From Acidimicrobiia bacterium (GTDB lineage: Bacteria > Actinomycetota > Acidimicrobiia > IMCC26256 > JACDBD01), in contig JBOGFJ010000089.1 of the NCBI GenBank assembly GCA_050743385.1, positions 1 to 43,823 on the forward strand: a stretch of 43,823 bases of DNA, in the 5' to 3' direction. The notes beneath the pieces were generated by a model. It ran no database searches. It saw only the letters and a program-made list of their open reading frames with translations, and was not told the origin of the DNA. Below are positions 6,606 to 43,726 of this stretch, piece by piece. Each line of letters begins with the position of its first letter. Position 1 is the first letter of the stretch. The translations under genes were made by a program, and so were the position numbers.

Positions 6606-6656
6606 GAGTCTCGAGGCCCACGGGTCCGGAAACCGGACCCCACGGCCTCGAGTCTC
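6606..6656. repeat. near-palindromic intergenic element, family A, copy 1
   Basis: gagtctcgaggcccacgggtccggaaaccggaccccacggcctcgagtctc. Structure is a 12/13-matching outer stem, a 3x3 internal loop (CAC/CAC), an 8-bp inner stem and an AAA loop. Its reverse complement recurs at 35665-35715, differing at 5 of 51 positions by hand alignment. Confidence 0.8.
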
Positions 6657-6667
6657 GGTTCAGCGAG

Positions 6668-7477
6668 TCAGAACAGGAAGTTCATCTCGGCCACGATGCG
6701 GCGCCCGAGGGCGTCGTCGCCGGTGATGGTGACCGCGCCGCTGGCGAGGATCCCGTCGGGGTCGCCGCGGCCCATGCCGAGGCGGACGAGCGTGTCGACA
6801 CCCATGGTGAGCCGGACGGTGGGATGCGCGGGTGCCGTGTCGAGCGGCTTGGCCCGGCCACCGTCCATGACGATGTCGGTGGTGCGGCCGTCCCACGCGA
6901 ACACGACGGTGGCGCCGTCGGGGGGCTTCACCTTCTTCCCCACGACGAAGGGGAGCGCGCCCGTGACCCGGCCCAACGACAGCTCGGCCGCCGCGCCCTC
7001 GAGGTCGCCGGGAAGCTCGAGCGCGCGCCGGATGTCCTGCTCGTGCGCCCACGAGTCGAAGATCCGGAACGGGAGCAGGTCGCGAACCGTGCCCGGGCCC
7101 GCCGGCGTCCACGAGTCTGCGCCGAGGTCGTCGTGCGTCATCGCCCGCAGGTTCGCGATCCGCTCCGCAGTGACGGCGCGGAACTCGTCGAGCACCTCGG
7201 GCCCCGAGCGCGACCGCATGGCGTCGACCCAGACCTCGTTCGACCGACCGATGTCGTTCTTCACGTGGGGCAGGTCGGGCGGGGTGTGATCGGGGGCGGG
7301 CCTCCCCATGATCGACGACTCGATGCCGGCGATGTGGGCCACGTTGTCCTGCACGCTCCAGCCCGGGCACTCGGTCTCGGTCTTCCACTGCGCCTCGCTG
7401 AGCGTCGAGCAGAGCGCGTCGATCGAGCCCCACACTTCTTCGAGCGTGTCGACGAGCCGTTGGTCCTGATCGGTCAT
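6668..7477 (-). CDS. maleylpyruvate isomerase family mycothiol-dependent enzyme (DinB-like N-domain + SCP2-like C-domain)
   Basis: MTDQDQRLVDTLEEVWGSIDALCSTLSEAQWKTETECPGWSVQDNVAHIAGIES...FDSWAHEQDIRRAL...TITGDDALGRRIVAEMNFLF. Its ATG overlaps the upstream gene's stop (ATGA at 7474-7477). Confidence 0.8.
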   Translation of the reverse strand: MTDQDQRLVDTLEEVWGSIDALCSTLSEAQWKTETECPGWSVQDNVAHIAGIESSIMGRPAPDHTPPDLPHVKNDIGRSNEVWVDAMRSRSGPEVLDEFRAVTAERIANLRAMTHDDLGADSWTPAGPGTVRDLLPFRIFDSWAHEQDIRRALELPGDLEGAAAELSLGRVTGALPFVVGKKVKPPDGATVVFAWDGRTTDIVMDGGRAKPLDTAPAHPTVRLTMGVDTLVRLGMGRGDPDGILASGAVTITGDDALGRRIVAEMNFLF

Positions 7478-9351: not shown

Positions 9352-9800
9352 GCCCGCTGCGCCTCACCCGGGTCGCGTAGGTGCCGGCTGAGGTCGCCGA
9401 CGAGGTCGGGAATGATGACTCGGTCGGCGAAACGCCAGCGACCCCCTTCGTCGCGCTCGAAGCGGTCGTGGTAGCGGCCGGCGATGATCGCCTGGAGCGG
9501 GAGGTCGGGTCGCGCCTGGAGCACGGTGAAGTACGAGCGCGCCGACGCTGTGCCCCCTGCCTCGTCCACGTCGACGGTCACGTTGGAGATCACGTGCTTC
9601 GTCTCAGGCGTGCCGTTCTCGTGGATGATCACGCCGTCGTAGCCGCGTCGCACTGCGGCGGCGCCCCGCACCGGCTCGCCCCGGCCGGGCGACCCCCACG
9701 ACGCGTGCTCGAAGAGGTCGGCGACGCCGTCGAGGTCGCCGGCGTCGAGACGCTCGGCGTACTCGTGGATCAGCGCCGTGATGGCGGCGCGGTCATCCAC
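9348..9800 (-). CDS. nuclear transport factor 2 (SnoaL-like) family protein
   Basis: MDDRAAITALIHEYAERLDAGDLDGVADLFEHASWGSP...SYFTVLQARPDLPLQAIIAGRYHDRFERDEGGRWRFADRVI is a typical SnoaL_4/NTF2 pattern. Confidence 0.75.
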   Translation of the reverse strand: MDDRAAITALIHEYAERLDAGDLDGVADLFEHASWGSPGRGEPVRGAAAVRRGYDGVIIHENGTPETKHVISNVTVDVDEAGGTASARSYFTVLQARPDLPLQAIIAGRYHDRFERDEGGRWRFADRVIIPDLVGDLSRHLRDPGEAQRA

Positions 9801-10816: not shown

Positions 10817-10917
10817 CCCTCCTTTCTGGTCGCGCTCGCTTCGCTCGCCGCTCCGCACGCAGCTGGCGGTCAGGGGGCCGGCAAAGCCGGCCCCCTGTCG
10901 GTGGATGGCACCTCCTC
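10817..10917 (+). repeat. about 100-nt intergenic element, family B, copy 1 (contains a 10-bp GC hairpin at 10873-10895)
   Basis: Starts immediately after the yceI-like TGA. The 34 nt at 10821-10854 (cctttctggtcgcgctcgcttcgctcgccgctcc) are identical to the reverse complement of 43693-43726. This is followed by the shared blocks tggcggtc, the GGGGGCCGGC-AAA-GCCGGCCCCC hairpin, and ggtggatggca.ctcctc. Confidence 0.8.
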
Positions 10918-16040: not shown

Positions 16041-16328
16041 TCATGACCAGTCGATCCGAGTCGCTCCGGCGGCCTCGGGGTGACGGCGGAGCCAATTCCC
16101 GGCGAACGGGCAGAGCGGCACGATCGTGAGCCCGTCGGCGACGGCGTGGTCGACGGCCGCTTGCACGAGCTTGCCTCCGACACCTCGGCCCGAGAGCTCG
16201 TCGGGTACTTCGGTATGGACCAGGATCAGCCGATCGCCGTGACGCCGGAACCAGAGCTCGGCGGTCCCGTCGGGGAGCGACAGCTCGAAGCGGCCGGACC
16301 GATCGTCGCGAACCACCGTCTCGGGCAT
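16041..16328 (-). CDS. GNAT-like small N-acetyltransferase (YjdJ type)
   Basis: MPETVVRDDRSGRFELSLPDGTAELWFRRHGDRLILVHTEVPDELSGRGVGGKLVQAAVDHAVADGLTIVPLCPFAGNWLRRHPE is the characteristic ~95-aa single-domain GNAT. Confidence 0.75.
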   Translation of the reverse strand: MPETVVRDDRSGRFELSLPDGTAELWFRRHGDRLILVHTEVPDELSGRGVGGKLVQAAVDHAVADGLTIVPLCPFAGNWLRRHPEAAGATRIDWS

Positions 16329-16389
16329 GCAGGTGCCAACGGCGTCGCCGCCACGCCTGTTCCCGTCTACGGTTCAACGGGGGTTCACG

Positions 16390-17322
16390 ATGCCGTTCGT
16401 CCCGGATTCGTTGGCGCTCGTCGCGGGTGGCCCAGAGAAGCCGTACGAGTGGTCGATGACCACGGAGCTCAGCTGGACGGGCACGTTCCGCGGGAACATC
16501 GGCCGGCTCCTCGTCCCCGCGTCGACGAGCCGGCCGTTCAAGACGGACCTCGCGTCGGTGCCGAGGGTGATGACGTGGTTGTTCCCTCGGTACGGGCAGT
16601 ACACGAAGGCCGCGGTGCTGCACGACTATCTGTGCCAGACGGTCGGACGCGAGACGATCGCGGTCTATCCGACCCAGTCCGACGACGGCGCCGAGGACGA
16701 CGGCGCCGATGACGACAGCGCCGATGACGACAGCGGTGGCGGCGGCGAGGCGGTCGCGCCGCAGCTGATCGAGGTCGCGGACCGGTCCGATGCCGACGAG
16801 ATCTTCCGGCTCGTGATGACGGAGTTGGACGTTCCGTGGGCGCGGCGGTGGCTGATGTGGTCGGCGGTGAGCTGGGCGACGCTCGTCACCAGCCTGTGGC
16901 CGGGCCGCAGCAGCAAAGGGACGTTGCGGAAGATCGGCCGCGTCGTCGTCGCCGCCGGCGGCCTTGCGGTGGTCGCCCTCGTTGCTCTGTTGTGGGAAAC
17001 CGGGGTGCTCCGGGCCGTGCTCCTGGTGCTGGCGGGCTCGACCGGGCTCGCGGCCGTGGTGATGGTGGCCGGGTACATCGCGCTGGGCCGTTGGGACCGA
17101 TGGCTCGTGTACCTCGCGGCCTTCGGCATGACCGTGGCGTCGCTCCCGCTCCTCGTCACCGGCGGGGTGATCGGGATCCTGCTCGTCCTCTACCTCCTCT
17201 TCGAGGATGCCTTCTCCGGCTTTCGCGCCACCCGGGCGCGTCTCGGTCGCCTGTGGGCGCGGCCGCCGGCGGTCGCGGCCACACCTCGCGACGAGCGGAT
17301 CGAGGCCGTACGCGGCAGCTGA
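16390..17322 (+). CDS. DUF1353-like domain protein with acidic insert and C-terminal multi-TM region
   Basis: FKTDLASVPRVMTWLFPRYGQYTKAAVLHDYLC resembles the DUF1353 motifs. A (DDGAE/DDSAD) acidic repeat follows, then hydrophobic segments (VVAAGGLAVVALVALLW, VLLVLAGSTGLAAVVMVAGYIAL, LLVTGGVIGILLVLYLLF). ATG 16390 is preferred over 16327, which would overlap the divergent start codon. Confidence 0.65.
   Translation: MPFVPDSLALVAGGPEKPYEWSMTTELSWTGTFRGNIGRLLVPASTSRPFKTDLASVPRVMTWLFPRYGQYTKAAVLHDYLCQTVGRETIAVYPTQSDDGAEDDGADDDSADDDSGGGGEAVAPQLIEVADRSDADEIFRLVMTELDVPWARRWLMWSAVSWATLVTSLWPGRSSKGTLRKIGRVVVAAGGLAVVALVALLWETGVLRAVLLVLAGSTGLAAVVMVAGYIALGRWDRWLVYLAAFGMTVASLPLLVTGGVIGILLVLYLLFEDAFSGFRATRARLGRLWARPPAVAATPRDERIEAVRGS
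16681..16740 (+). repeat. in-frame 15-nt tandem repeat x4 inside the DUF1353-like gene
   Basis: gacgacggcgccgag / gacgacggcgccgat / gacgacagcgccgat / gacgacagcggtggc, encoding DDGAE-DDGAD-DDSAD-DDSGG. Confidence 0.85.
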
Positions 17323-17363
17323 GAAGATGGCGCGGGTCACACCCCGTCGACGGAGGCACTCGC

Positions 17364-19040
17364 ATGGCAGAGAACCATGGGGGCGACGGTTCCGACGTCG
17401 CTTCCGACGCCGCCCCCGCCCCCCTCAGCCAGTCGGCGCTAGAGGAGATTGCGACCTTCGGCGACGAGCGGACGGTCGCCGAGGGGGACGTGCTCTTCCG
17501 AGCCGGTGACTTGTCCTACGACTTCTTCGTGGTGCTCGACGGCGAGATCGAGATCGTCCGGCCGCACGACGACGGCGATGTCCTGCTCGCGGCGCACGGC
17601 GCGGGGCGATTCCTGGGGGAGCTGAACCTGCTGACGGGACAGCGGGCGTACCTGACCGCCCGCGTCTCCCGAGCCGGGCGGGTGCTGGCGATCGGGCCCG
17701 ACGACTTCCGCCGGCTCATGAACTCCAAGCCCGCCATCGCCGACACGATCTTTCGCGCCTTCGTTGCCCGCCGGGAGCTGCTCCGCGCCGGCGAGGGGGC
17801 GCGTGCGGTGCGCATCGTCGGCTCCCGGTACTCGCCGGAGGCGCTCGCGCTGCGCGGGTTCGCGACGCGGTCCCGGGTCCCCCACACCTGGATCGACGTC
17901 GAGGATGCCGACGATGCCGGGGTTCTCCTGGCGAGCATGGGCGTTCGCGCGCCCCACCTCCCGGTCGTGATCACACCGACGGCCATCCTGCGTCGTCCCT
18001 CGCCAGGACAGTTCGCCGAGCATCTCGGGCTCACGTTCCGCACGGCCCCCGGATACACATTCGATCTGGTCGTGGTCGGGACCGGTCCCGGCGGCCTCGC
18101 CGCGGCGGTGTACGGCGCGTCGGAGGGTCTGGCGACCGTCTCCGTCGATGCGGTCGCAGCCGGCGGGCAGGCGGGCTCGAGCTCACGGATCGAGAACTAC
18201 GTCGGGTTCCCGAGCGGCATCTCCGGCGATGAGCTGACATCGCGGGCTGCCACCCAGGCCCAGCGCCTGGGAGCCCGACTGAATGCTCCGTGCGAGGTTG
18301 CCGGCCTTCGCGTCGAGGACACCTTCCACGTCGTCGAGCTCGCCGACGGCAGCGAGATCCCGAGTCGTTCGGTGATCGTCGCGTCGGGGGCGCGCTACCA
18401 GCGCCTCGCGGTCGACGACCTCGAGCGCCTCGAAGGAGCGGGCGTGTACTACGCCGCCACCGACCTGGAGGCACGGATCTGCAGCGGCCACGACGTCATC
18501 GTCGTCGGCGGCGGCAATTCGGCCGGCCAGGGGGCGATCTATCTCGCCCAACAGGGCAGCCGAGTCTCGATCGCGATTCGCGGGGGTGACCTGTCGAAGC
18601 GCATGTCGCGGTACCTGGTCGAACGGATCGAGGCCGACCCCCGCATCGAGCTGCTGACGACCACCGAGGTCAGGGCGCTCGCCGGAGGGCGTCATCTCGA
18701 GCGAGTCACACTCGAAGACACCGCGACCGGGAGGCGACGAGAGGTCGTATGCAGTGGCTTGTTCTGCTTCATCGGTGCCGAGCCCGCGACTGCGTGGCTG
18801 CGGGGCACGATCGCGCTGGACGCCGCCGGGTTCGTCCTGACCGATCGCGCCCTCCCCGAGTCGGTCGTCGCGAGCCCGGTGTTCGCGACGCGCGAGCCGC
18901 TGCCGTTCGAGACGTCGGTCCCGGGAGTGTTCGCGGTCGGTGACGTGCGGCACGGCTCCCAGAAGCGCGTCGCGGCCGCCGTCGGCGAAGGCTCGAGCGC
19001 GGTGCGGTCGGTGCACGAGCACCTGGCGTTGGTCAGCTGA
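17364..19040 (+). CDS. cyclic-nucleotide-binding domain fused to a thioredoxin-reductase-like FAD/NAD(P) oxidoreductase lacking the CxxC redox centre
   Basis: GGAGG precedes ATG 17364. The cNMP-binding domain reads VLFRAGDLSYDFFVVLDGEIEIV...GRFLGELNLLTGQRAYLTARV. The TrxR-like part has DLVVVGTGPGGLAAAVYGASEG, VIVVGGGNSAGQGAIYL and GVFAVGDVRHG. At the position of the TrxR CATC motif the sequence is GVYYAATDLE, with no Cys pair. Confidence 0.85.
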   Translation: MAENHGGDGSDVASDAAPAPLSQSALEEIATFGDERTVAEGDVLFRAGDLSYDFFVVLDGEIEIVRPHDDGDVLLAAHGAGRFLGELNLLTGQRAYLTARVSRAGRVLAIGPDDFRRLMNSKPAIADTIFRAFVARRELLRAGEGARAVRIVGSRYSPEALALRGFATRSRVPHTWIDVEDADDAGVLLASMGVRAPHLPVVITPTAILRRPSPGQFAEHLGLTFRTAPGYTFDLVVVGTGPGGLAAAVYGASEGLATVSVDAVAAGGQAGSSSRIENYVGFPSGISGDELTSRAATQAQRLGARLNAPCEVAGLRVEDTFHVVELADGSEIPSRSVIVASGARYQRLAVDDLERLEGAGVYYAATDLEARICSGHDVIVVGGGNSAGQGAIYLAQQGSRVSIAIRGGDLSKRMSRYLVERIEADPRIELLTTTEVRALAGGRHLERVTLEDTATGRRREVVCSGLFCFIGAEPATAWLRGTIALDAAGFVLTDRALPESVVASPVFATREPLPFETSVPGVFAVGDVRHGSQKRVAAAVGEGSSAVRSVHEHLALVS

Positions 19041-19401: not shown

Positions 19402-20547
19402 TCAATCGAGGATCGCCTCGAGCTCGGCCGCGGCGGCAGCCGCACCACCCTCGTCGGCGCTGACCTTCGCGAGCGATGCGGCTGCATGGCGATAGCTCGC
19501 CTCGGAGAGAACCAGCTCGAGTGCCCGCCTGATGTCACCGGCGGTCGCGCTCCGCGCAAGCGTGGTGCCGGCACCCAGATCCGCGACGCGCTGGGCATTC
19601 AACGGCTGGTCTCGGTCGATCGGCGTGCACACCAGCGGGACGCCAAAGCTCAGCGCGGCGGCAACGCTTCCGAGACCGGCGTGGGTCACCATCACGTCTG
19701 TGCCGGTCATCACCTGCACATGCGGGACGAAGTCGACGACTGCCACGTTGGACGGTGCGCGAAGGGAGCCGATGTCGACCTGGCCGGCCGTGCTGACGAG
19801 CGCCCTCGCTGCGATGCCCTCGAGCGCATCGACGATCGTCTGGAGCAGCCCCTCGTGCGCCTGGTATGTCGTACTCAAGCCGACGAGGACGGTCGGCCCG
19901 TCTCCTGGCGGAAACCGGCCTGCTGCATCGACGCCGATCGTGCCGCCACGCGGACCGAGGAAGCCGAAATGTCGCATGGCGGTCGGGACGTCGGCGACCG
20001 CGGCGTCGAACACGCTCGGAACGACGGCGAAGAGACGGTCGTGACTGGCGAACGCTGCCGGCCAATCGTCCACGGCCGCGAGGCCATAGGCGTGCCGCGT
20101 CTGGTTGATCGCCGATCCGAGCAGCGGCCAAAGGTCAGCGAACCAGGTGTCGACGAACGTCTTGTACATGCTGTGCAGCAGGACGACGGATGGCTGGGCG
20201 AGCGCTTCCGCCGCCGCGAGGCCACCGCCGAGATTCGCGTCCACGACGATGAGGTCGGCCCTGCGATCGCGCGCCAGCGCTGTGACATCGTCGCCCACTG
20301 ACGTGCCGGTGATGACAGGCACGGTCAGCGCAAACTGCTCCTCGAGAAGCTCGCGGCGCGCGTAGTCGGGAATGGCGGAGAACGCGAAGAACCGGCATCC
20401 CGCTCTTTCGGCGCGCCGCTTCACCGAGGGCTGACTGAGGAAGGAGACCTCGTGCCCAGACCGCACGAGCACCTCTGCGATCGCGAGCATCGGAGGGACC
20501 GTGCCGCCGGCGTCGTGACACGTGAGGAGAAAGCGCCTCGGCTTCAT
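19402..20547 (-). CDS. glycosyltransferase, GT1 family (MGT/UDP-glycosyltransferase-like)
   Basis: MKPRRFLLTCHDAGGTVPPMLAIAEVLVRSGHEVSFL...VDFVPHVQVMTGTDVMVTHAGLGSVAAALSFGVPLVCTPIDRDQPLNAQRVADLGAG is the GT-B UDP-sugar binding signature region. Confidence 0.85.
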   Translation of the reverse strand: MKPRRFLLTCHDAGGTVPPMLAIAEVLVRSGHEVSFLSQPSVKRRAERAGCRFFAFSAIPDYARRELLEEQFALTVPVITGTSVGDDVTALARDRRADLIVVDANLGGGLAAAEALAQPSVVLLHSMYKTFVDTWFADLWPLLGSAINQTRHAYGLAAVDDWPAAFASHDRLFAVVPSVFDAAVADVPTAMRHFGFLGPRGGTIGVDAAGRFPPGDGPTVLVGLSTTYQAHEGLLQTIVDALEGIAARALVSTAGQVDIGSLRAPSNVAVVDFVPHVQVMTGTDVMVTHAGLGSVAAALSFGVPLVCTPIDRDQPLNAQRVADLGAGTTLARSATAGDIRRALELVLSEASYRHAAASLAKVSADEGGAAAAAAELEAILD

Positions 20548-20574: not shown

Positions 20575-21483
20575 CTAGCCCGGGCGAAGGTGGCGGTCGT
20601 CGAGAGCACTGACGAGGCGGGCGACGAGTGCTCGGGCGATGGCGCCGGCAGGGTCGAGGGAAGGGTTGAAGATGGTGACTTCCAGACCAACGGCCTCGCC
20701 ACTCTCGACGGCCACGCGAATCACTGTCTCCAACTCGTTCCAGCTGAGCCCGCCGGGCAATCGGTAGTCGACGGCCGGCATGACGGCGTCGTCCAGCACG
20801 TCGCAGTCGAGATGGATCCAGAAGCCCGCGAGCTCGGGTCGACGCAGGCGCTCGAGGGCCTCGTGCGCGGCGGCATCGGCGCCTCGCTCCCGCACGGTCG
20901 CCAGATCGAGGACGGCGACGGCGGTGTCCTCGATGCGCTGGCTTCCCGCCCGCTCTGCCTCTTCGGCATCTCGGCGTCCGACCACCACCACGTCCTCGTC
21001 CCGGACCAACGGTCCCTGCCCGTCGAGTTCGGCCACGACCCGTGGCCCGCGTCCGGTGGCGAGGGCCAGGTCCATCGACGCCGCCTCTCCGTTGGGTTCG
21101 GCTTCCGGTTGGTAGAAGTCGGCGTGGCCGTCGAGGAACAGCAGGCCGTGGCGACCGCGCCGTCTCAGTGCAAGCAGGTTGCCGAGCAGGATCGAGCAAT
21201 CGCCGCCGAGCACAACCGGTACCTCGCCACTGTCGAGCACCTCGCCGGTGGCGTCAGCCAACTGATGGGCGTAATCGCGCAGGCCCGTCGGATTGCGCAG
21301 CCCCGTCGTGGTGTCGCGCCTTGGGTCATACGGCGGCGGGATGACAACGGCTGCTCGGCGCGCCCCCAGCGCATCGGCCAGGCCTGCCTCGAGAAGGGCT
21401 GCCGGAAGACGCTCGACCCCGCCAGGGAAGAGGCCCAGAACGGAGGGAGCCTCGATGATGGCGTAGCCGCCCATTCCTCCCAC
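20575..21483 (-). CDS. arginase/ureohydrolase-fold family protein (non-canonical first metal motif)
   Basis: The motifs are VVLGGDCSILLG (canonical GGDHS), LFLDGHADF (DAHxD) and WIHLDCDVLDD (SxDxDxxDP). 27 bp upstream of, and on the same strand as, the GT1 gene. Confidence 0.8.
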   Translation of the reverse strand: MGGMGGYAIIEAPSVLGLFPGGVERLPAALLEAGLADALGARRAAVVIPPPYDPRRDTTTGLRNPTGLRDYAHQLADATGEVLDSGEVPVVLGGDCSILLGNLLALRRRGRHGLLFLDGHADFYQPEAEPNGEAASMDLALATGRGPRVVAELDGQGPLVRDEDVVVVGRRDAEEAERAGSQRIEDTAVAVLDLATVRERGADAAAHEALERLRRPELAGFWIHLDCDVLDDAVMPAVDYRLPGGLSWNELETVIRVAVESGEAVGLEVTIFNPSLDPAGAIARALVARLVSALDDRHLRPG

Positions 21484-21553
21484 TTCCTCACCGGAACCCG
21501 GGCGCCGAAGGACGCGCAGGTGCTCCGACCAATTGTCGCTCGCGCCGCAGATC

Positions 21554-21587
21554 GGTCGTCAGTTTCGCTTCACCGACACTGACGACC
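21554..21587 (-). terminator. 10-bp-stem hairpin just downstream of the tRNA gene
   Basis: ggtcgtcagt (21554-21563) pairs with actgacgacc (21578-21587) around a 14-nt loop. It starts 17 nt after the tRNA 3' end on the minus strand. No U-tract. Confidence 0.4.
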
Positions 21588-21603
21588 ACCTCAGCCCAGG
21601 GTG

Positions 21604-21676
21604 TGCCCCCGGTGGGATTCGAACCCACACTGACGGGTGTTTAGGACCCTTTCCTCTGCCGTTGGGATACGGGGGC
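21604..21676 (-). tRNA. atypical class-I tRNA, anticodon loop CCUAAAC (nominal anticodon UAA; isotype uncertain)
   Basis: Minus strand: GCCCCCGUAUCCCAACGGCAGAGGAAAGGGUCCUAAACACCCGUCAGUGUGGGUUCGAAUCCCACCGGGGGCA. Acceptor stem is 7/7 Watson-Crick. T arm is GUGGG-UUCGAAU-CCCAC. Variable loop is 5 nt, discriminator is A73, and no CCA is encoded. The anticodon stem is GGGU/ACCC plus an A27-G43 mismatch, and position 33 is C. Confidence 0.75.
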
Positions 21677-21703
21677 CGATCTCGCCTTGCCGATGTTCCG
21701 TCC

Positions 21704-21731
21704 ACGATACGTCGGCGTCGGTGCGTGGCAA
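21704..21731 (-). promoter_or_regulatory. candidate promoter for the tRNA gene (TTGCCA-N16-TATCGT)
   Basis: Minus strand ttgcca (21731-21726), a 16-nt spacer, then tatcgt (21709-21704), which ends 27 nt upstream of tRNA position 1. The same TATCGT hexamer appears as the -10 candidate in the MerR-region promoter. Confidence 0.3.
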
Positions 21732-21809
21732 TTGGGACACAGCACACTCGTCCCCCGGAGATCGTGGCTCACGGGCCACGGATGGGCGGGGGAAGAAGAC
21801 GGCGCTCGA

Positions 21810-22262: not shown

Positions 22263-23048
22263 GTGCCGCTGCGGATCGGGACCTCGGGCTGGCAGTACCG
22301 CGACTGGCGGGCGTCCTTCTATCCCCGTGACCTCGCCCAGCGGGCGTGGCTGCAGTACTACGCCGAGCGGTTCGCCACCGTCGAGGTCAACAACACCTTC
22401 TACCGGCTCCCCGAGCGGGCCACCTTCGCCACTTGGGGCAACCGGACCCCGGCCGACTTCGAGTTCGTGATCAAGGCCAGCCGGTTCCTCACCCACATCC
22501 GCCGCCTCAAGGAGCCGGCGGAGCCCGTCGCCCGCATGCTCGACCACGCCGCCGGCCTCGGGGCCAAGCTGGGACCGGTACTGGTGCAGCTCCCGCCCAA
22601 CCTGCGGGCCGACCCCGCCCGCCTCGACGACACGCTCGCCCGCTTCCCCGCCGGCCAGCGCGTGGTCGTCGAGCCCCGCCACGAGTCGTGGTTCACCGAC
22701 GATGTCTACGAGCTCCTGGCCGCGCGCGACGCCGCCCTGTGCCTCACCGACCGGCTCGGCCGCCGAGGCCCGGTCGAGCGGACGGCGAACTGGACGTTCC
22801 TCCGCTTCCACGAGGGCACCGCCCACCCCCACCCCTGCTACGGCGACCGCGCCCTCGCGGGTTGGCTCGACCGCCTGGCGGAGCGGTGGCCCCGGCACGC
22901 CGATTGCTACGTGTTCTTCAACAACGACCCTCGCGCGTGCGCGGTGCGGAACGCGGCGAGGTTCGCGCAGCTCGCGGCGCGGGCCGGGCTCAGCCCGACC
23001 CGCGCGCCCGACCCGAAGAGCATCCGGGTCGTCGGCGCGCGCCGCTAG
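22263..23048 (+). CDS. DUF72 domain-containing protein
   Basis: MPLRIGTSGWQYRDWRASFYPRDLAQRAWLQYYAERFATVEVNNTFYRLPERATFATWGNRTPADFEFVIKASRFLTH... is the canonical DUF72 N-terminus. GTG start. Confidence 0.9.
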   Translation: MPLRIGTSGWQYRDWRASFYPRDLAQRAWLQYYAERFATVEVNNTFYRLPERATFATWGNRTPADFEFVIKASRFLTHIRRLKEPAEPVARMLDHAAGLGAKLGPVLVQLPPNLRADPARLDDTLARFPAGQRVVVEPRHESWFTDDVYELLAARDAALCLTDRLGRRGPVERTANWTFLRFHEGTAHPHPCYGDRALAGWLDRLAERWPRHADCYVFFNNDPRACAVRNAARFAQLAARAGLSPTRAPDPKSIRVVGARR

Positions 23049-23175: not shown

Positions 23176-24096
23176 GTGACCGACCCTGCGGGCGATCCCC
23201 GCCCGACCCTCCGGGCATCGGAACCCGACCGACAGCCTCCGCCGGTCGACCTGGGTGCTCCCAGCACCGAGCTCGTACCGGTCCCGCCCGACGACCGCCT
23301 CGACGAGGAGCTGCGCCAAGGCGACGTCGATCGCTGGGGGCGTAGCGAGAGCATCCGCGAGATCGCCCGCACGATCTACGATCCGCTCTACCGCTACTGG
23401 TTCCGAGCGGAATGGGAAGGCCTCGAGCACATTCCCGCGCATGGCGGTGCCCTGCTCGTCGCCAACCATGCCGGCGCGATCCCCGCGGACGCGCCCGCGA
23501 TCATGCACGGGGTCGAGACCGAGCTCGGCCGGCCGGTCTACGGGCTGGCCGAGTTCCTCTTCCGCGACGTGCCGGTCGTCGGCACGCTGTGGGCACGGGC
23601 AGGGGGTGTCACGGCCCACCCCGAGAACGCCTACCGCCTCCTGTACGACGACCACCAGCTCGTGCTGGCGTTCCCGGAGGGGGTGAAGGGCACGGGCAAG
23701 CTCTACCGTGACCGCTACCAGCTCCGCCGCTTCGGCCGGGGCGGGTTCGTCGAGATCGCCATGCGGTCGGGCGTGCCGGTCGTTCCGATCGCCGTCGTCG
23801 GGGCCGAGGAGTCGATGCCCGTCGTATGGAAGAGCCCGCGCCTGGCCAAGCTGCTGGGCGTCCCCTACGTCCCGGTGACCGTCAACATGCTCATGTTCGG
23901 TCCGCTGGGCCTGGTGGCCTACTTCCCGGCGAAGTTCAAGTTCCGCGTGCTGCCGCCCGTCCACTTCAACGTGGAGCCCAACCAGGAGCGCTACTCGCGG
24001 AGCCGGGTGATGGAGGAGGCCGACCGGATCCGCGCCCGGATCCAGGACGCGCTCTACGACATGCTCCGGACGCGCAAGAGCGTTTGGGCAGGCTGA
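23176..24096 (+). CDS. lysophospholipid (1-acyl-sn-glycerol-3-phosphate-type) acyltransferase family protein
   Basis: LLVANHAGAIPADAPAI matches the NHxxxxD acyltransferase motif and VLAFPEGVKGTGK matches the FPEG motif. GGFVEIAMRSGVPVVPIAVVGAEE is also present. Confidence 0.85.
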   Translation: MTDPAGDPRPTLRASEPDRQPPPVDLGAPSTELVPVPPDDRLDEELRQGDVDRWGRSESIREIARTIYDPLYRYWFRAEWEGLEHIPAHGGALLVANHAGAIPADAPAIMHGVETELGRPVYGLAEFLFRDVPVVGTLWARAGGVTAHPENAYRLLYDDHQLVLAFPEGVKGTGKLYRDRYQLRRFGRGGFVEIAMRSGVPVVPIAVVGAEESMPVVWKSPRLAKLLGVPYVPVTVNMLMFGPLGLVAYFPAKFKFRVLPPVHFNVEPNQERYSRSRVMEEADRIRARIQDALYDMLRTRKSVWAG

Positions 24097-24104
24097 GACG
24101 AACC

Positions 24105-25142
24105 GTGCGCGTCCTCGTCACGGGCATCGGCACCTTCTGGGGCAGCCGCATCGCCCAGGAGCTGGAGGCGCGCGACGACGTGGAGGTCGTCGTCGGTCTG
24201 GGGGTCGGCGAGCCCGTGCTCCCATTGGAGCGCACCGAATACGTCCGGGCCGACTCGGGTTACTCGATCCTCCAGCGGATCGTGCACGCGACCCAGGTCG
24301 ACACGATCGTGCACACCCACCTCGTCGTCGATTCCACCCAGCTGAGTGCTCGGGCGACGCACGAGATCAACGTCATCGGGACCATGAACCTGCTCGCGGC
24401 CGCGGGCACTGCCGGCAGCCCGGTGCGGAAACTGATCGTCAAGAGCTCGACACTCGTCTACGGGTCGGGCAAGGCCGACCCCTACGTGTTCCGGGAGCAG
24501 TCGACGCGCACGACCCCGGTGCGCACTCGAGTCGAGCGCTCGCTCCTCGAGGTCGAGAGCTTCGTCGCCGACTTCTCGGAGGACAGCCCGCACGTGACCG
24601 TCACGTTGCTGCGATTCTCCAACGTCCTCGGCGATCACATGCAAACCCCGTTCGGCAGGGCGCTGCGGCTCCCGGTCGCGCCCGAGATCCTCGGCTTCGA
24701 CCCGCTGCTCCAGTTCACGCACGAGGACGACGCCTGCTCGGCCCTCATCCACGCCACGGTCAAGGACGTGCCCGGTGTCTACAACGTCGCCGGCGACGGC
24801 ACGATGCCCTGGAGCGAGGTATGCAAGATCGTCGGCAAGCGACGCGTCCCGCTCCCGCCCGTGTTCACGAACCTGGCGGCGGAGCCGCTGCGCTTCCTCC
24901 GCGTGGTCGACCTGCCGCCCGAGATGCTCTCCCTGCTGCGCTACGGCAAGGGCGTCGACAACACCCGTTACAAGCGGACGGGCTTCCAGTACCGCTTCTC
25001 GACCGCGGGCGCCGTCGAAGACTTCGCCCGCGGCCTGCGCCTCGAGTCGACCGTGGGCGAGCGTCATCCCGCTTACCGGTATCAGCGCGACGTCGAGACG
25101 TTCTTCCGCCACTCCTCCGCCGTAGTGCCGGACCGCGAGTAG
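24105..25142 (+). CDS. NAD-dependent epimerase/dehydratase (extended SDR) family protein
   Basis: GTG 24105: VRVLVTGIGTFWGSRIAQELE (Rossmann-type glycine motif)...DTIVHTHL...KLIVKSSTLVYGS...VTLLRFSNVLG. Confidence 0.85.
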   Translation: MRVLVTGIGTFWGSRIAQELEARDDVEVVVGLGVGEPVLPLERTEYVRADSGYSILQRIVHATQVDTIVHTHLVVDSTQLSARATHEINVIGTMNLLAAAGTAGSPVRKLIVKSSTLVYGSGKADPYVFREQSTRTTPVRTRVERSLLEVESFVADFSEDSPHVTVTLLRFSNVLGDHMQTPFGRALRLPVAPEILGFDPLLQFTHEDDACSALIHATVKDVPGVYNVAGDGTMPWSEVCKIVGKRRVPLPPVFTNLAAEPLRFLRVVDLPPEMLSLLRYGKGVDNTRYKRTGFQYRFSTAGAVEDFARGLRLESTVGERHPAYRYQRDVETFFRHSSAVVPDRE

Positions 25143-35666: not shown

Positions 35667-35713
35667 GACTCGAGGCCGTGGGGTCCGGAATCCGGACCCG
35701 TGGGCCTCGAGTC
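35667..35713. repeat. near-palindromic intergenic element, family A, copy 2 (inverted relative to copy 1)
   Basis: gactcgaggccgtggggtccggaatccggacccgtgggcctcgagtc. Blocks of 22 and 20 consecutive nt are identical to the reverse complement of 6606-6656. The element ends 10 nt before GTG 35724. Confidence 0.8.
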
Positions 35714-35723
35714 TGGGGCGGTC

Positions 35724-42851: not shown

Positions 42852-43550
42852 CTACTCCCCGCCGCTCTCGCCCTCGGCCGCCTCGCCGCCCTCGGCCGCC
42901 GCCGCCTCGCCCTCGCCCTCGGCAGCCTCACCCTCGGCGGCCTCACCCTCGACCTCTTCGCCCTCCTCGGCCTCGGGCTCGGGCTCCTCGACCACGCGGG
43001 GCATGACCACCTGCACGACGAGCTCCTCGGGCTCGTTCTGCAGTGCGACGCCCGCGGGTATCGCGAGCTCCTCGATCCGCAGCTGGTCGCCGATCTCGAG
43101 GGCGGACACGTCGACCTCGATGGCGTTGGGGATGTCGGCGGGCTTCGCCTGGATGGCGAGCGAGAACACGAGCTGCTCGAGGACGCCGCCGTCGCGCACA
43201 CCCGCGGGCTCGCCCTCGAGGTGCACGGGGATCTCGGCCTCGACGGCGACGTCGCGGCGGATGCGGACGAAATCGACGTGGATGAGCTCGCCGCGCGTCG
43301 GGTGCCGCTGGATCTGGCGGGCGAGCGTGAGGATGTCGTCGCCATCCCACTTCAAGGTGATCAGCGTGTTGGCGCCGGCCTCGCCGCTGAGGATGTGCTG
43401 GAGCTCGCGGGCGGGGACGGTGACGTTGAGCGTCTCGGTCTCGAGGCCGTAGATGACGGCCGGCACCTTCCCCTCGCGGCGCAGCCGGCCAGCGGGGCGG
43501 CTGCCCCTGACGGTGCGGGGTTGGGCGGGGAGCAGGATGTCGTCGGGCAT
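42852..43550 (-). CDS. rplY: 50S ribosomal protein L25/general stress protein Ctc, with acidic Glu/Ala/Gly-rich tail
   Basis: ATG 43550: MPDDILLPAQPRTVRGSRPAGRLRREGKVPAVIYG...LTLARQIQRHPTRGELIHVDFVRI... The C-terminal tail is EEPEPEAEEGEEVEGEAAEGEAAEGEGEAAAAEGGEAAEGESGGE. Confidence 0.9.
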   Translation of the reverse strand: MPDDILLPAQPRTVRGSRPAGRLRREGKVPAVIYGLETETLNVTVPARELQHILSGEAGANTLITLKWDGDDILTLARQIQRHPTRGELIHVDFVRIRRDVAVEAEIPVHLEGEPAGVRDGGVLEQLVFSLAIQAKPADIPNAIEVDVSALEIGDQLRIEELAIPAGVALQNEPEELVVQVVMPRVVEEPEPEAEEGEEVEGEAAEGEAAEGEGEAAAAEGGEAAEGESGGE

Positions 43551-43626: not shown

Positions 43627-43726
43627 GGAGGAGCTGCCATCCACCGGCGAGGGGGCCGGGTCTCCCGGCCCCCGGACCGCCAGGATTGCGCGGGAGCGGC
43701 GAGCGAAGCGAGCGCGACCAGAAAGG
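43627..43726 (-). repeat. about 100-nt intergenic element, family B, copy 2 (hairpin at 43650-43672)
   Basis: The reverse complement begins immediately after the rplQ TGA, reading cctttctggtcgcgctcgcttcgctcgccgctcc...tggcggtc.GGGGGCCGGG-AGA-CCCGGCCCCC...ggtggatggcagctcctc. It aligns along its whole length to 10817-10917. Confidence 0.8.

Follow-up and report, generated by a model that had tools for sequence, protein, structure and literature searches.

The window analyzed in this study, i.e., the whole 43,823-nucleotide (nt) contig JBOGFJ010000089.1 from a metagenome-assembled genome of an Acidimicrobiia bacterium (NCBI GenBank assembly GCA_050743385.1; 71% GC), carries near its middle a single 73-nt tRNA gene, which is read on the minus strand from position 21676 to 21604 and has the sequence GCCCCCGUAUCCCAACGGCAGAGGAAAGGGUCCUAAACACCCGUCAGUGUGGGUUCGAAUCCCACCGGGGGCA. 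ARAGORN detected one tRNA in the window (21603-21676, minus strand) and called it tRNA-Leu with anticodon taa, while the only Rfam match in the window was that to RF00005, which spanned the full length of the model (1-71) and scored 47 bits (E=4.5e-07), the gathering score being 29. Both results bore out an earlier note on this DNA, which had described a class-I tRNA with the nominal anticodon UAA and C33, and the cloverleaf details given there were all confirmed as well: the acceptor stem is Watson-Crick paired at 7 of 7 positions, the discriminator base is A73, the T arm reads GUGGG-UUCGAAU-CCCAC, and a variable loop of only 5 nt (UCAGU) lies between the anticodon and T stems in place of a long arm. 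CCA is not encoded. The anticodon arm is A-GGGU / CCUAAAC / ACCC-G, with C33, C38, and an A27.G43 mismatch, and C13.A22 is also unpaired, as it is in every member of the family described below. A minimum-free-energy fold of the single sequence did not give a cloverleaf; such folds are uninformative for tRNAs, and covariation was relied on instead. The 73-nt gene is a real tRNA-Leu. It departs from a canonical elongator tRNA in having C33 instead of the U33 of the U-turn, from a class-II or bldA-type tRNA (long variable arm, about 83-90 nt) in its length of 73 nt and its 5-nt loop, and from a nonsense suppressor, the 7-nt loop of which would have CUA, UUA, or UCA as its bases 34-36, in having UAA there.

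The 5' end of the tRNA gene is abutted, on the same strand, by the last codons of a phage-type HNH endonuclease gene (cf. Table 1), the translation of which was 78% identical by tblastn to the C-terminus of the intact HNH protein of a related locus (L135; loci compared with the window are designated by L numbers). An intact HNH domain is therefore missing from the window, and only this stub of 27 codons is present. Its reading frame continues into the tRNA and ends at the anticodon TAA (21640-21760, minus strand), which is probably a coincidence. The stub also contains the motif TTGCCA-N16-TATCGT, which the earlier note had taken for the tRNA's own promoter. The motif is indeed present, with 0.0 occurrences expected from shuffled sequences, but its hexamers are the stub codons N-C-H and T-Y-R, and the first of them reads CTGCCA in L132, L135, and L136, so that the supposed promoter is made of the codons of a dead HNH gene. 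Upstream of the stub lies a small open reading frame (ORF) for a protein of 107 amino acids, for which searches of Pfam and NCBIfam gave no match; in all relatives it lies ahead of the tRNA, in the same orientation. The tRNA may share a transcript with this small ORF, or the promoter-like site in the HNH stub may serve its transcription.

The pairing of a short variable loop with a leucine anticodon had been regarded as an anomaly, on the premise that bacterial tRNA-Leu species are of class II. This premise does not hold, because Streptomyces coelicolor is known to have a type-I tRNA-Leu(CAA), the variable loop of which is 5 nt long; this tRNA is charged by the single leucyl-tRNA synthetase (LeuRS) of the cell, while Escherichia coli LeuRS cannot charge it, and the loop length of 5 nt is important for it (Fan et al. 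2019, NAR; PMC6614811). A scan of genomes, one for each species, in which the loop C(C/U)UAAAC had to lie at class-I distance from the T loop UUCGAAU, gave at least 120 loci. After removal of tRNA-Arg(CCU) genes matching in another register, the matches listed included at least 111 tRNAs of 73-78 nt with anticodon UAA, at least 90 of which are solitary chromosomal genes, nearly all from Actinomycetota; the others lie within tRNA arrays of other phyla. Hosts of the solitary genes among the matches listed belong to Acidimicrobiia, Propionibacteriales, Micrococcales, Nanopelagicales, Coriobacteriia, and Thermoleophilia. Other false positives excluded from the pattern scans of this study were tRNA-Ser(CGA), matched in its variable arm, and a few non-tRNA matches.

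In an alignment of 39 family sequences, 99.5% of the cells were paired, double changes were found in 16 of 20 pairs, all four stems covaried, and the covariation score was reached by none of 500 shuffles. A covariance model (R1) was then built from 30 U33 members, from which the window tRNA and its clade were left out. This model gave the window tRNA 86.8 bits (E=2.4e-20, rank 6 of 287 matches), a score in the same range as those of U33 members; other family members scored 67-97 bits and non-leucine tRNAs at most about 58. The likeness to Glu and Gln tRNAs claimed in the earlier note is contradicted by this model, on which the Glu and Gln tRNAs of the arrays searched reached 40-58 bits, and by the D loop, AAC-GGCAGA, which is of leucine type. 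The family alignments showed no variation at U8, A14, A15, G18G19, A21, and A73 and almost none at U48, and the window tRNA carries the full leucine identity set (U8-A14, A15-U48, G18G19, A20a/A21, and A73). These positions are the leucine identity elements of bacteria, for which the long arm is dispensable (PMC9976931). As judged from its sequence, the window tRNA is thus shown to belong to a large type-I tRNA-Leu(UAA) family. A tRNA of this kind was already known, but the UAA form and the breadth of its occurrence, on many Actinomycetota chromosomes and in arrays and phages, are not described in the literature searched, in which we also found no follow-up papers on type-I tRNA-Leu beyond that of Fan et al.

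As a separate observation, large arrays of Planctomycetota, Acidobacteriota, Chloroflexota, and Elusimicrobia contain Leu tRNAs with anticodons CAA, UAG, GAG, and CAG that are also only 73-79 nt long (L007, L084, L087, L093, L111, L123, and others), several of which score 60-87 bits on R1. Type-I tRNA-Leu thus seems to be common in arrays, at times beside class-II species (L016 and L149).

The window tRNA and the S. coelicolor tRNA-Leu(CAA) are alike in the 5-nt variable loop, U8-A14, and the leucine-type elements of the D and T loops. They differ in anticodon, in host class, and at position 33, which is C in the window tRNA, and the UAA isoacceptor of S. coelicolor (bldA) is of type II; moreover, charging by LeuRS was measured for the Streptomyces tRNA and is predicted for that of the window. 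Human mitochondrial tRNA-Leu(UUR) is likewise of type I, with anticodon UAA and identity residing on A14 and A73 (PMC9976931), but it is an organellar tRNA of loose structure that is served by its own LeuRS, and S. coelicolor LeuRS does not charge it (PMC6614811). By analogy with the S. coelicolor tRNA, we infer that the window tRNA would be charged with leucine by a LeuRS of the actinobacterial type, and that its transcript would be processed and given CCA. It is probably a working leucine tRNA.

Comparison of gene order indicated that this gene is native to its locus. An acyltransferase-epimerase pair, divergent from a U33 tRNA-Leu(UAA) and 0.8-5 kb away from it, is found in seven Acidimicrobiia genomes in the same arrangement as in the window. 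In six closer relatives, retrieved via the adjacent DUF72 gene (72-87.5% identical), a tRNA-Leu(UAA) occupies the window's position in 6 of 6, and the gene order small ORF / DUF72 / acyltransferase / epimerase / ECH is common to all of them. Since synteny is conserved on this side of the tRNA, the window tRNA is the positional orthologue of the native tRNA-Leu(UAA) of the lineage. A homologue of the small ORF (56% identical) also lies upstream of the U33 tRNA in L086. We had considered that the acceptor stem GCCCCCG might be imported, as Acidimicrobiales-type copies have GGGGRYG. This idea was rejected, because L393-L395, relatives without an HNH gene, also have GCCCCCG, which makes the acceptor stem native to the lineage.

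When metagenomes were scanned for the C33 form, 67 loci were obtained; about 45 are real and represent 38 unique sequences, and about 32 of the real ones lie in tRNA arrays. Five solitary high-GC matches (L132, L135, L136, L150, and L175) have both C33 and the rare U10-A25 pair in common with the window tRNA and differ from it, with compensation, in the acceptor, anticodon, and T stems; C33 is also present in L396 and L398. In L132, L135, and L136, an HNH endonuclease of about 180 amino acids (aa; ...LELDHINGRADDNRLENLRLLCPNCHAQTPTYRGRNIGKAR) is encoded just 5' of the tRNA. The gene is apparently intact in L135, where its stop codon abuts the tRNA, and in L136, where its frame continues into the tRNA, while in L396 and L397 the C-terminal part is intact (73-128 aa aligned) and in L175 a degenerate trace was found. 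The intact protein matches Pfam HNH_3/HNH and PHROG 10822 (E=2e-45). The distance between the small ORF and the tRNA follows the state of this gene: it is 14-17 nt in L393 and L394, which lack HNH, 435-604 nt where HNH is inserted, and 137 nt in the window and in L005, a contig 99% identical to it.

The anticodon arm of the tRNA differs among these loci in the same way. Without HNH (L393, L394, and L395), the arm is uniform, CGGGA-YUUAAAA-UCCYG, with U33 and A38, and this allele includes ...CGGGACTTAAAATCCCG.... With HNH between the small ORF and the tRNA (L132, L135, L396, L397, and L398), the loop is C(C/U)UAAAC on diverse, compensated stems, and position 33 is C in all except L397. The window and L005, with the 27-codon stub, have the loop CCUAAAC and C33, and the same C33 allele as in the window is found in L136, with its intact HNH gene, and in L175, with its HNH trace. 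The CCUAAAC-type loop that had drawn attention in the earlier note is therefore conserved, as C(C/U)UAAAC, in the HNH-bearing relatives. Across the loci placed by DUF72, three without HNH and six with HNH or its remnant, the loop class (A38/U33 versus C38/mostly C33) matched the presence of HNH in 9 of 9. In the alignment of this allele series, 98.6% of the cells are paired and double changes occur in 5 of 5 anticodon-stem pairs, so that the cloverleaf is preserved in either class. Trees built from the linked genes show the allele classes interleaved, and in them the window, with its HNH remnant, is sister to L393, which has no HNH (91% aa identity in the acyltransferase and 90% in the epimerase). 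The tRNAs of these two sisters do not differ at nt 1-9 and 49-73, and their differences are confined to nt 10-48, the HNH-proximal part. Presence and absence at one site among close relatives, together with an altered adjacent gene, as observed here, is expected of an HNH homing-endonuclease gene beside its target.

Alternatively, C33 may have arisen in place, by drift or GC pressure on a tRNA in low demand, with the adjacent HNH gene a coincidence. This explanation would account for C33 at loci without detectable HNH (L150, L130, L170, and L165), for the combination of HNH with U33 in L397, and for the phage tRNAs beside this HNH, which mostly have U33, and the contigs are indeed rich in GC (67-74%). 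It does not account for the agreement between loop class and HNH even between sister lineages whose flanking proteins are 90-91% identical, for the confinement of the window/L393 differences to nt 10-48, or for C33 in low-GC arrays and phages. We therefore give drift in place only a small chance.

Codon usage of the window was in line with the expectation in the earlier note that UUA should be rare in so GC-rich a host: TTA was absent from 11,106 codons, UUG accounted for about 4.8 per 1000 codons, and TAG ended 10 of 34 genes. The tRNA would read UUA, and probably UUG too, in a genome that almost never uses UUA. Such disuse could mean that selection on the tRNA has lapsed and that defects such as C33 and A27.G43 accumulate in a decaying pseudo-tRNA, one of the options raised in the earlier note. 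The absence of TTA, the mere 47 bits on the generic tRNA model, and the conjunction of C33 with a mispaired stem position would fit this option. However, C33 is kept across the orthologous clade while all four stems change with compensation, the leucine identity nucleotides are all intact, and the score on R1 falls in the range of U33 members. Furthermore, the U33-bearing relatives are equally poor in TTA (8 of 38,158 codons), so that disuse of UUA alone does not explain C33. Because the cloverleaf is kept by compensatory changes, decay is a poor fit and in our judgment unlikely.

Two other roles bear on decoding. The first is that of a recoding or suppressor tRNA for UAG, which was suggested by the amber anticodon CUA at positions 33-35. 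Nothing other than this out-of-register triplet speaks for it. The loop is a normal one of 7 nt, the orthologues and about 100 family members among the matches listed have U33 with the same UAA anticodon, and TAG is an ordinary stop in the window, where its efficient reading would be harmful; signs of recoding were not seen in the neighborhood. As the loop length and anticodon match those of the U33 relatives and TAG is a normal stop, a suppressor function is extremely improbable. The second role is that of a bldA-like regulator, the level of which would gate the translation of a few UUA-containing genes. The window tRNA has the anticodon of Streptomyces bldA and also faces a very rare codon in a high-GC genome, and extreme rarity of UUA is the precondition for control of the bldA type in Streptomyces (PMC6614811). 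However, bldA itself is a type-II species that has a long variable arm and a documented developmental role, whereas the window tRNA has neither such an arm nor a sign of regulation: it directly follows the conserved small ORF, with no indication of separate control, and no TTA-containing genes were seen in the window or in the loci of its clade. On the evidence of the window and these loci, a bldA-like role is unlikely.

The HNH family was also found next to tRNA-Leu(UAA) outside this clade. In arrays L149/L153, a homologue (43% identity over 128 aa) immediately precedes a type-I tRNA-Leu(UAA) with C33, and in the AT-rich phage tRNA cluster L275/L306 another (49% identity) immediately precedes one with U33. 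To avoid ascertainment bias, we picked 80 viral loci (L313-L392) by the HNH protein alone, and tRNAs were present within 1.5 kb in 72 of them. Among the 56 loci with a tRNA within 200 nt of HNH, the nearest one was tRNA-Leu(UAA) in 37 and a Leu tRNA of any kind in 43, while tRNA-Leu(UAA) made up 44 of the 256 tRNAs in these viral loci. It was found on either side of HNH and was of type I or type II. With regard to spacing, it lay about 55-70 nt upstream of HNH or abutted or overlapped its 3' end. An association with tRNA-Leu(UAA) genes in particular is shown for the PHROG 10822-type HNH family, and our literature search on such a link found nothing specific.

C33 itself had a similar distribution. 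Counted in unique sequences of bystander tRNAs, it was present in 24 of 272 from genome array loci, in 47 of 328 from metagenome array loci, and in 29 of 1010 and 5 of 196 from two sets of viral loci, i.e., in 3-14% in phage and array loci and in many isotypes (Val, Glu, Thr, Ile, Pro, Ala, Gly, and Leu(GAG)). Among solitary chromosomal family members it was found in 2 of 97 unique sequences, and both exceptions stand in mobile contexts, one in a Mycobacterium array and one beside an excisionase-like ORF. C33 is a trait of mobile-element tRNAs. A C33 type-I tRNA-Leu(UAA) with an irregular acceptor and D loop, each with one extra nucleotide, was observed in L009 (Pseudonocardia kunmingensis, 7165-7240) directly downstream of an excisionase-like helix-turn-helix ORF, and it may belong to an integrated element. 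In Mycobacterium avium, tRNA array units are reported to contain one conserved embedded HNH gene and to have tRNAs with an anticodon domain unlike that of chromosomal tRNAs (PMC12803027). The window tRNA resembles those of arrays and phage clusters, which differ from chromosomal tRNAs mainly in this domain (PMC12803027; PMC10264068), among which C33 is frequent, and in which the same HNH family abuts tRNA-Leu(UAA); unlike them, it is a single tRNA at a native chromosomal locus, with an HNH stub only. Evasion of anticodon nucleases has been proposed for phage tRNAs in a paper that says nothing on position 33 (PMC10264068), and U33C had no effect on gamma-toxin (PMC2275089), so that evasion by way of C33 was kept as a speculation only.

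These findings led us to consider it likely that the window gene is the lineage's type-I tRNA-Leu(UAA), standing at a conserved Acidimicrobiia locus and carrying an anticodon arm that is the allele co-occurring with HNH. The comparisons show this co-occurrence, the insertion of HNH exactly between the small ORF and the 5' end of the tRNA, and the interleaving of the two alleles among close relatives. The allele could have been formed as follows: (i) HNH and the 5' two-thirds of the tRNA would have moved together by homing or gene conversion; and (ii) HNH would since have decayed to the 27-codon stub in the window lineage, with the tRNA allele staying behind. Free-standing homing endonucleases occur in phage tRNA regions, examples being SegB of T4 and the F-Tfl enzymes of T5. 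They are comparable to the HNH described here in that an endonuclease gene lies beside its probable target, is patchy among close relatives, and is accompanied by an altered adjacent gene; they differ in that the HNH of the window belongs to a bacterial chromosome, stands beside a cellular tRNA, and is known from genes alone. A more far-reaching version, in which the PHROG 10822 HNH homes specifically to tRNA-Leu(UAA) and, by co-conversion, replaces the 5' two-thirds of the tRNA resident there, so that the arm with C38 and usually C33 would be a scar outlasting HNH, is plausible, although we lean slightly against it. Candidate reasons for C33 and C38 in the linked allele are immunity to the endonuclease, hitch-hiking of the donor allele, and resistance to an anticodon nuclease; an anticodon arm of the mobile-element type may be refractory to either enzyme.

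Several points weigh against this reading. On the side of function, a LeuRS gene was not found in the window, so that competence of the host enzyme for type-I tRNA-Leu is assumed from Streptomyces; the tRNA census covers the window, and a second tRNA-Leu(UAA) or a tRNA-Leu(CAA) possibly exists elsewhere in the genome; and C33 removes the hydrogen-bond donor of the U-turn and A27.G43 is mispaired, which may reduce activity. On the side of the HNH link, L397 combines HNH with U33, C33 is found without detectable HNH at the four loci listed above, most phage tRNA-Leu(UAA) genes beside a PHROG 10822-type HNH have a canonical U33 loop, and the link rests on about 12 loci that are phylogenetically non-independent. 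The order of events may have been either repeated invasion or ancestral presence followed by replacement.

Table 1. Features of the tRNA-Leu(UAA) locus and its surroundings in the window
Feature	Position	Strand	Basis or remark
DUF1353 gene	16327-17322	plus	Pfam
cNMP-binding pyridine-nucleotide-disulphide oxidoreductase	17319-19040	plus	Pfam
Small zf-UBP-like ORF	within variable segment 16327..21474		Pfam
GT1 gene	19402-20547	minus	Pfam
Arginase-family gene	20575-21474	minus	Pfam
Hairpin 3' of tRNA, ~11 bp outer stem	21553..21588	minus	Fold -26.8 kcal/mol, z=-2.9
tRNA-Leu, type I (short variable loop), anticodon UAA, loop CCUAAAC (C33, C38)	21604..21676	minus	ARAGORN, RF00005, family model R1, covariation
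HNH endonuclease remnant, last ~27 codons (...VLCPNCHAPTPTYRGRNIGKAR)	21680..21760	minus	tblastn, translation; abuts tRNA 5' end
Promoter-like TTGCCA-N16-TATCGT	21704..21731	minus	Promoter scan; inside HNH remnant
Small ORF, 107 aa	21810..22133	minus	Precedes tRNA on same strand in all relatives
DUF72 gene	22263-23048	plus	Pfam; synteny anchor
Acyltransferase gene	23176-24096	plus	Pfam; synteny anchor
Epimerase gene	24105-25142	plus	Pfam; synteny anchor

The segment downstream of the tRNA is hypervariable (cf. Table 1). In the window it extends over 5.6 kb and contains the arginase, GT1, zf-UBP-like, oxidoreductase, and DUF1353 genes; in L393 it holds other genes, and the redoxin orthologue is reached after 1.6 kb; in L136 a DUF1353 gene lies about 1 kb from the tRNA, and of L136 and L175 only the former has a flanking gene (this DUF1353 gene) in common with the window. 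The earlier note had pointed to the arginase-fold and GT1 genes downstream of the tRNA on the same strand, and had listed among its options a tRNA that serves as an aminoacyl donor outside translation, which here would mean a pathway of these two genes. The arrangement itself is as described and recurs in L005, the only contig that repeats the tRNA/arginase/GT1 layout, but a functional link finds no support, because both genes are absent from the orthologous tRNA loci (L135, L136, and L393-L398). Orthologues of the arginase-family protein elsewhere (about 77-87% identical) have differing neighbors and no adjacent tRNA in 4 of 4 sampled contigs, and a link argued from synteny was dropped in view of these four (77-86%); moreover, a Pfam scan of the window found no tRNA-dependent transferase family. 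With the adjacency not conserved, the chance of an aminoacyl-donor role is close to negligible, and the two genes are an unrelated, lineage-specific insertion and incidental neighbors. Relatives of the arginase-family protein at 75-87% identity number in the hundreds, and its pairing with GT1 was seen only in the window and L005.

An integrative island targeted to the tRNA was also considered and rejected, as there was no att-like repeat, no integrase among the window genes scanned, and no informative long repeat; a second copy of the 3' half of the tRNA was not found in the window at up to 3 mismatches. The hairpin reported after the tRNA is real, but it lacks a T run and, by comparison of the flanks, is not conserved in relatives.

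Other repeats were noted in the window. A 48-nt palindromic, hairpin-forming element has two intergenic copies (6607-6654 and 35667-35714) that are 94% complementary and 82% identical as direct repeats; an element of about 100 nt has two inverted copies (10821-10917 and 43628-43726) with a perfect 34-nt core and a GC-rich hairpin segment; and a 45-nt tandem repeat at 42863-42952 lies in an ORF that runs off the window end and would be rich in Ala, Gly, and Glu if translated. In L002, ARAGORN reported an 83-nt "tRNA-Glu(ctc)" at 9462-9544, inside an AAA_16/GerE regulator gene, which is probably a false positive.

The apparent anomaly of a class-I body with a leucine anticodon is thus resolved by a widespread type-I tRNA-Leu family that has been studied in one species. 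Within this family, the window provides a case of a chromosomal tRNA that is conserved and intact in structure and has C in place of the near-universal U33. Two aspects look new: that such a C33 allele is conserved at a native locus, and that it is tied to an HNH family found in association with tRNA-Leu(UAA). Should the link to HNH prove causal, a cellular tRNA gene can have its anticodon arm rewritten by mobile endonucleases, and the odd loop would be the scar of a selfish element on a core gene of translation. In that case, the 3-14% of C33 in phage and array tRNAs would also deserve a functional explanation, such as endonuclease immunity, evasion of anticodon nucleases, or altered decoding. 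With U33 and C33 alleles occurring naturally at the same locus in sister genomes, a test system is already at hand.

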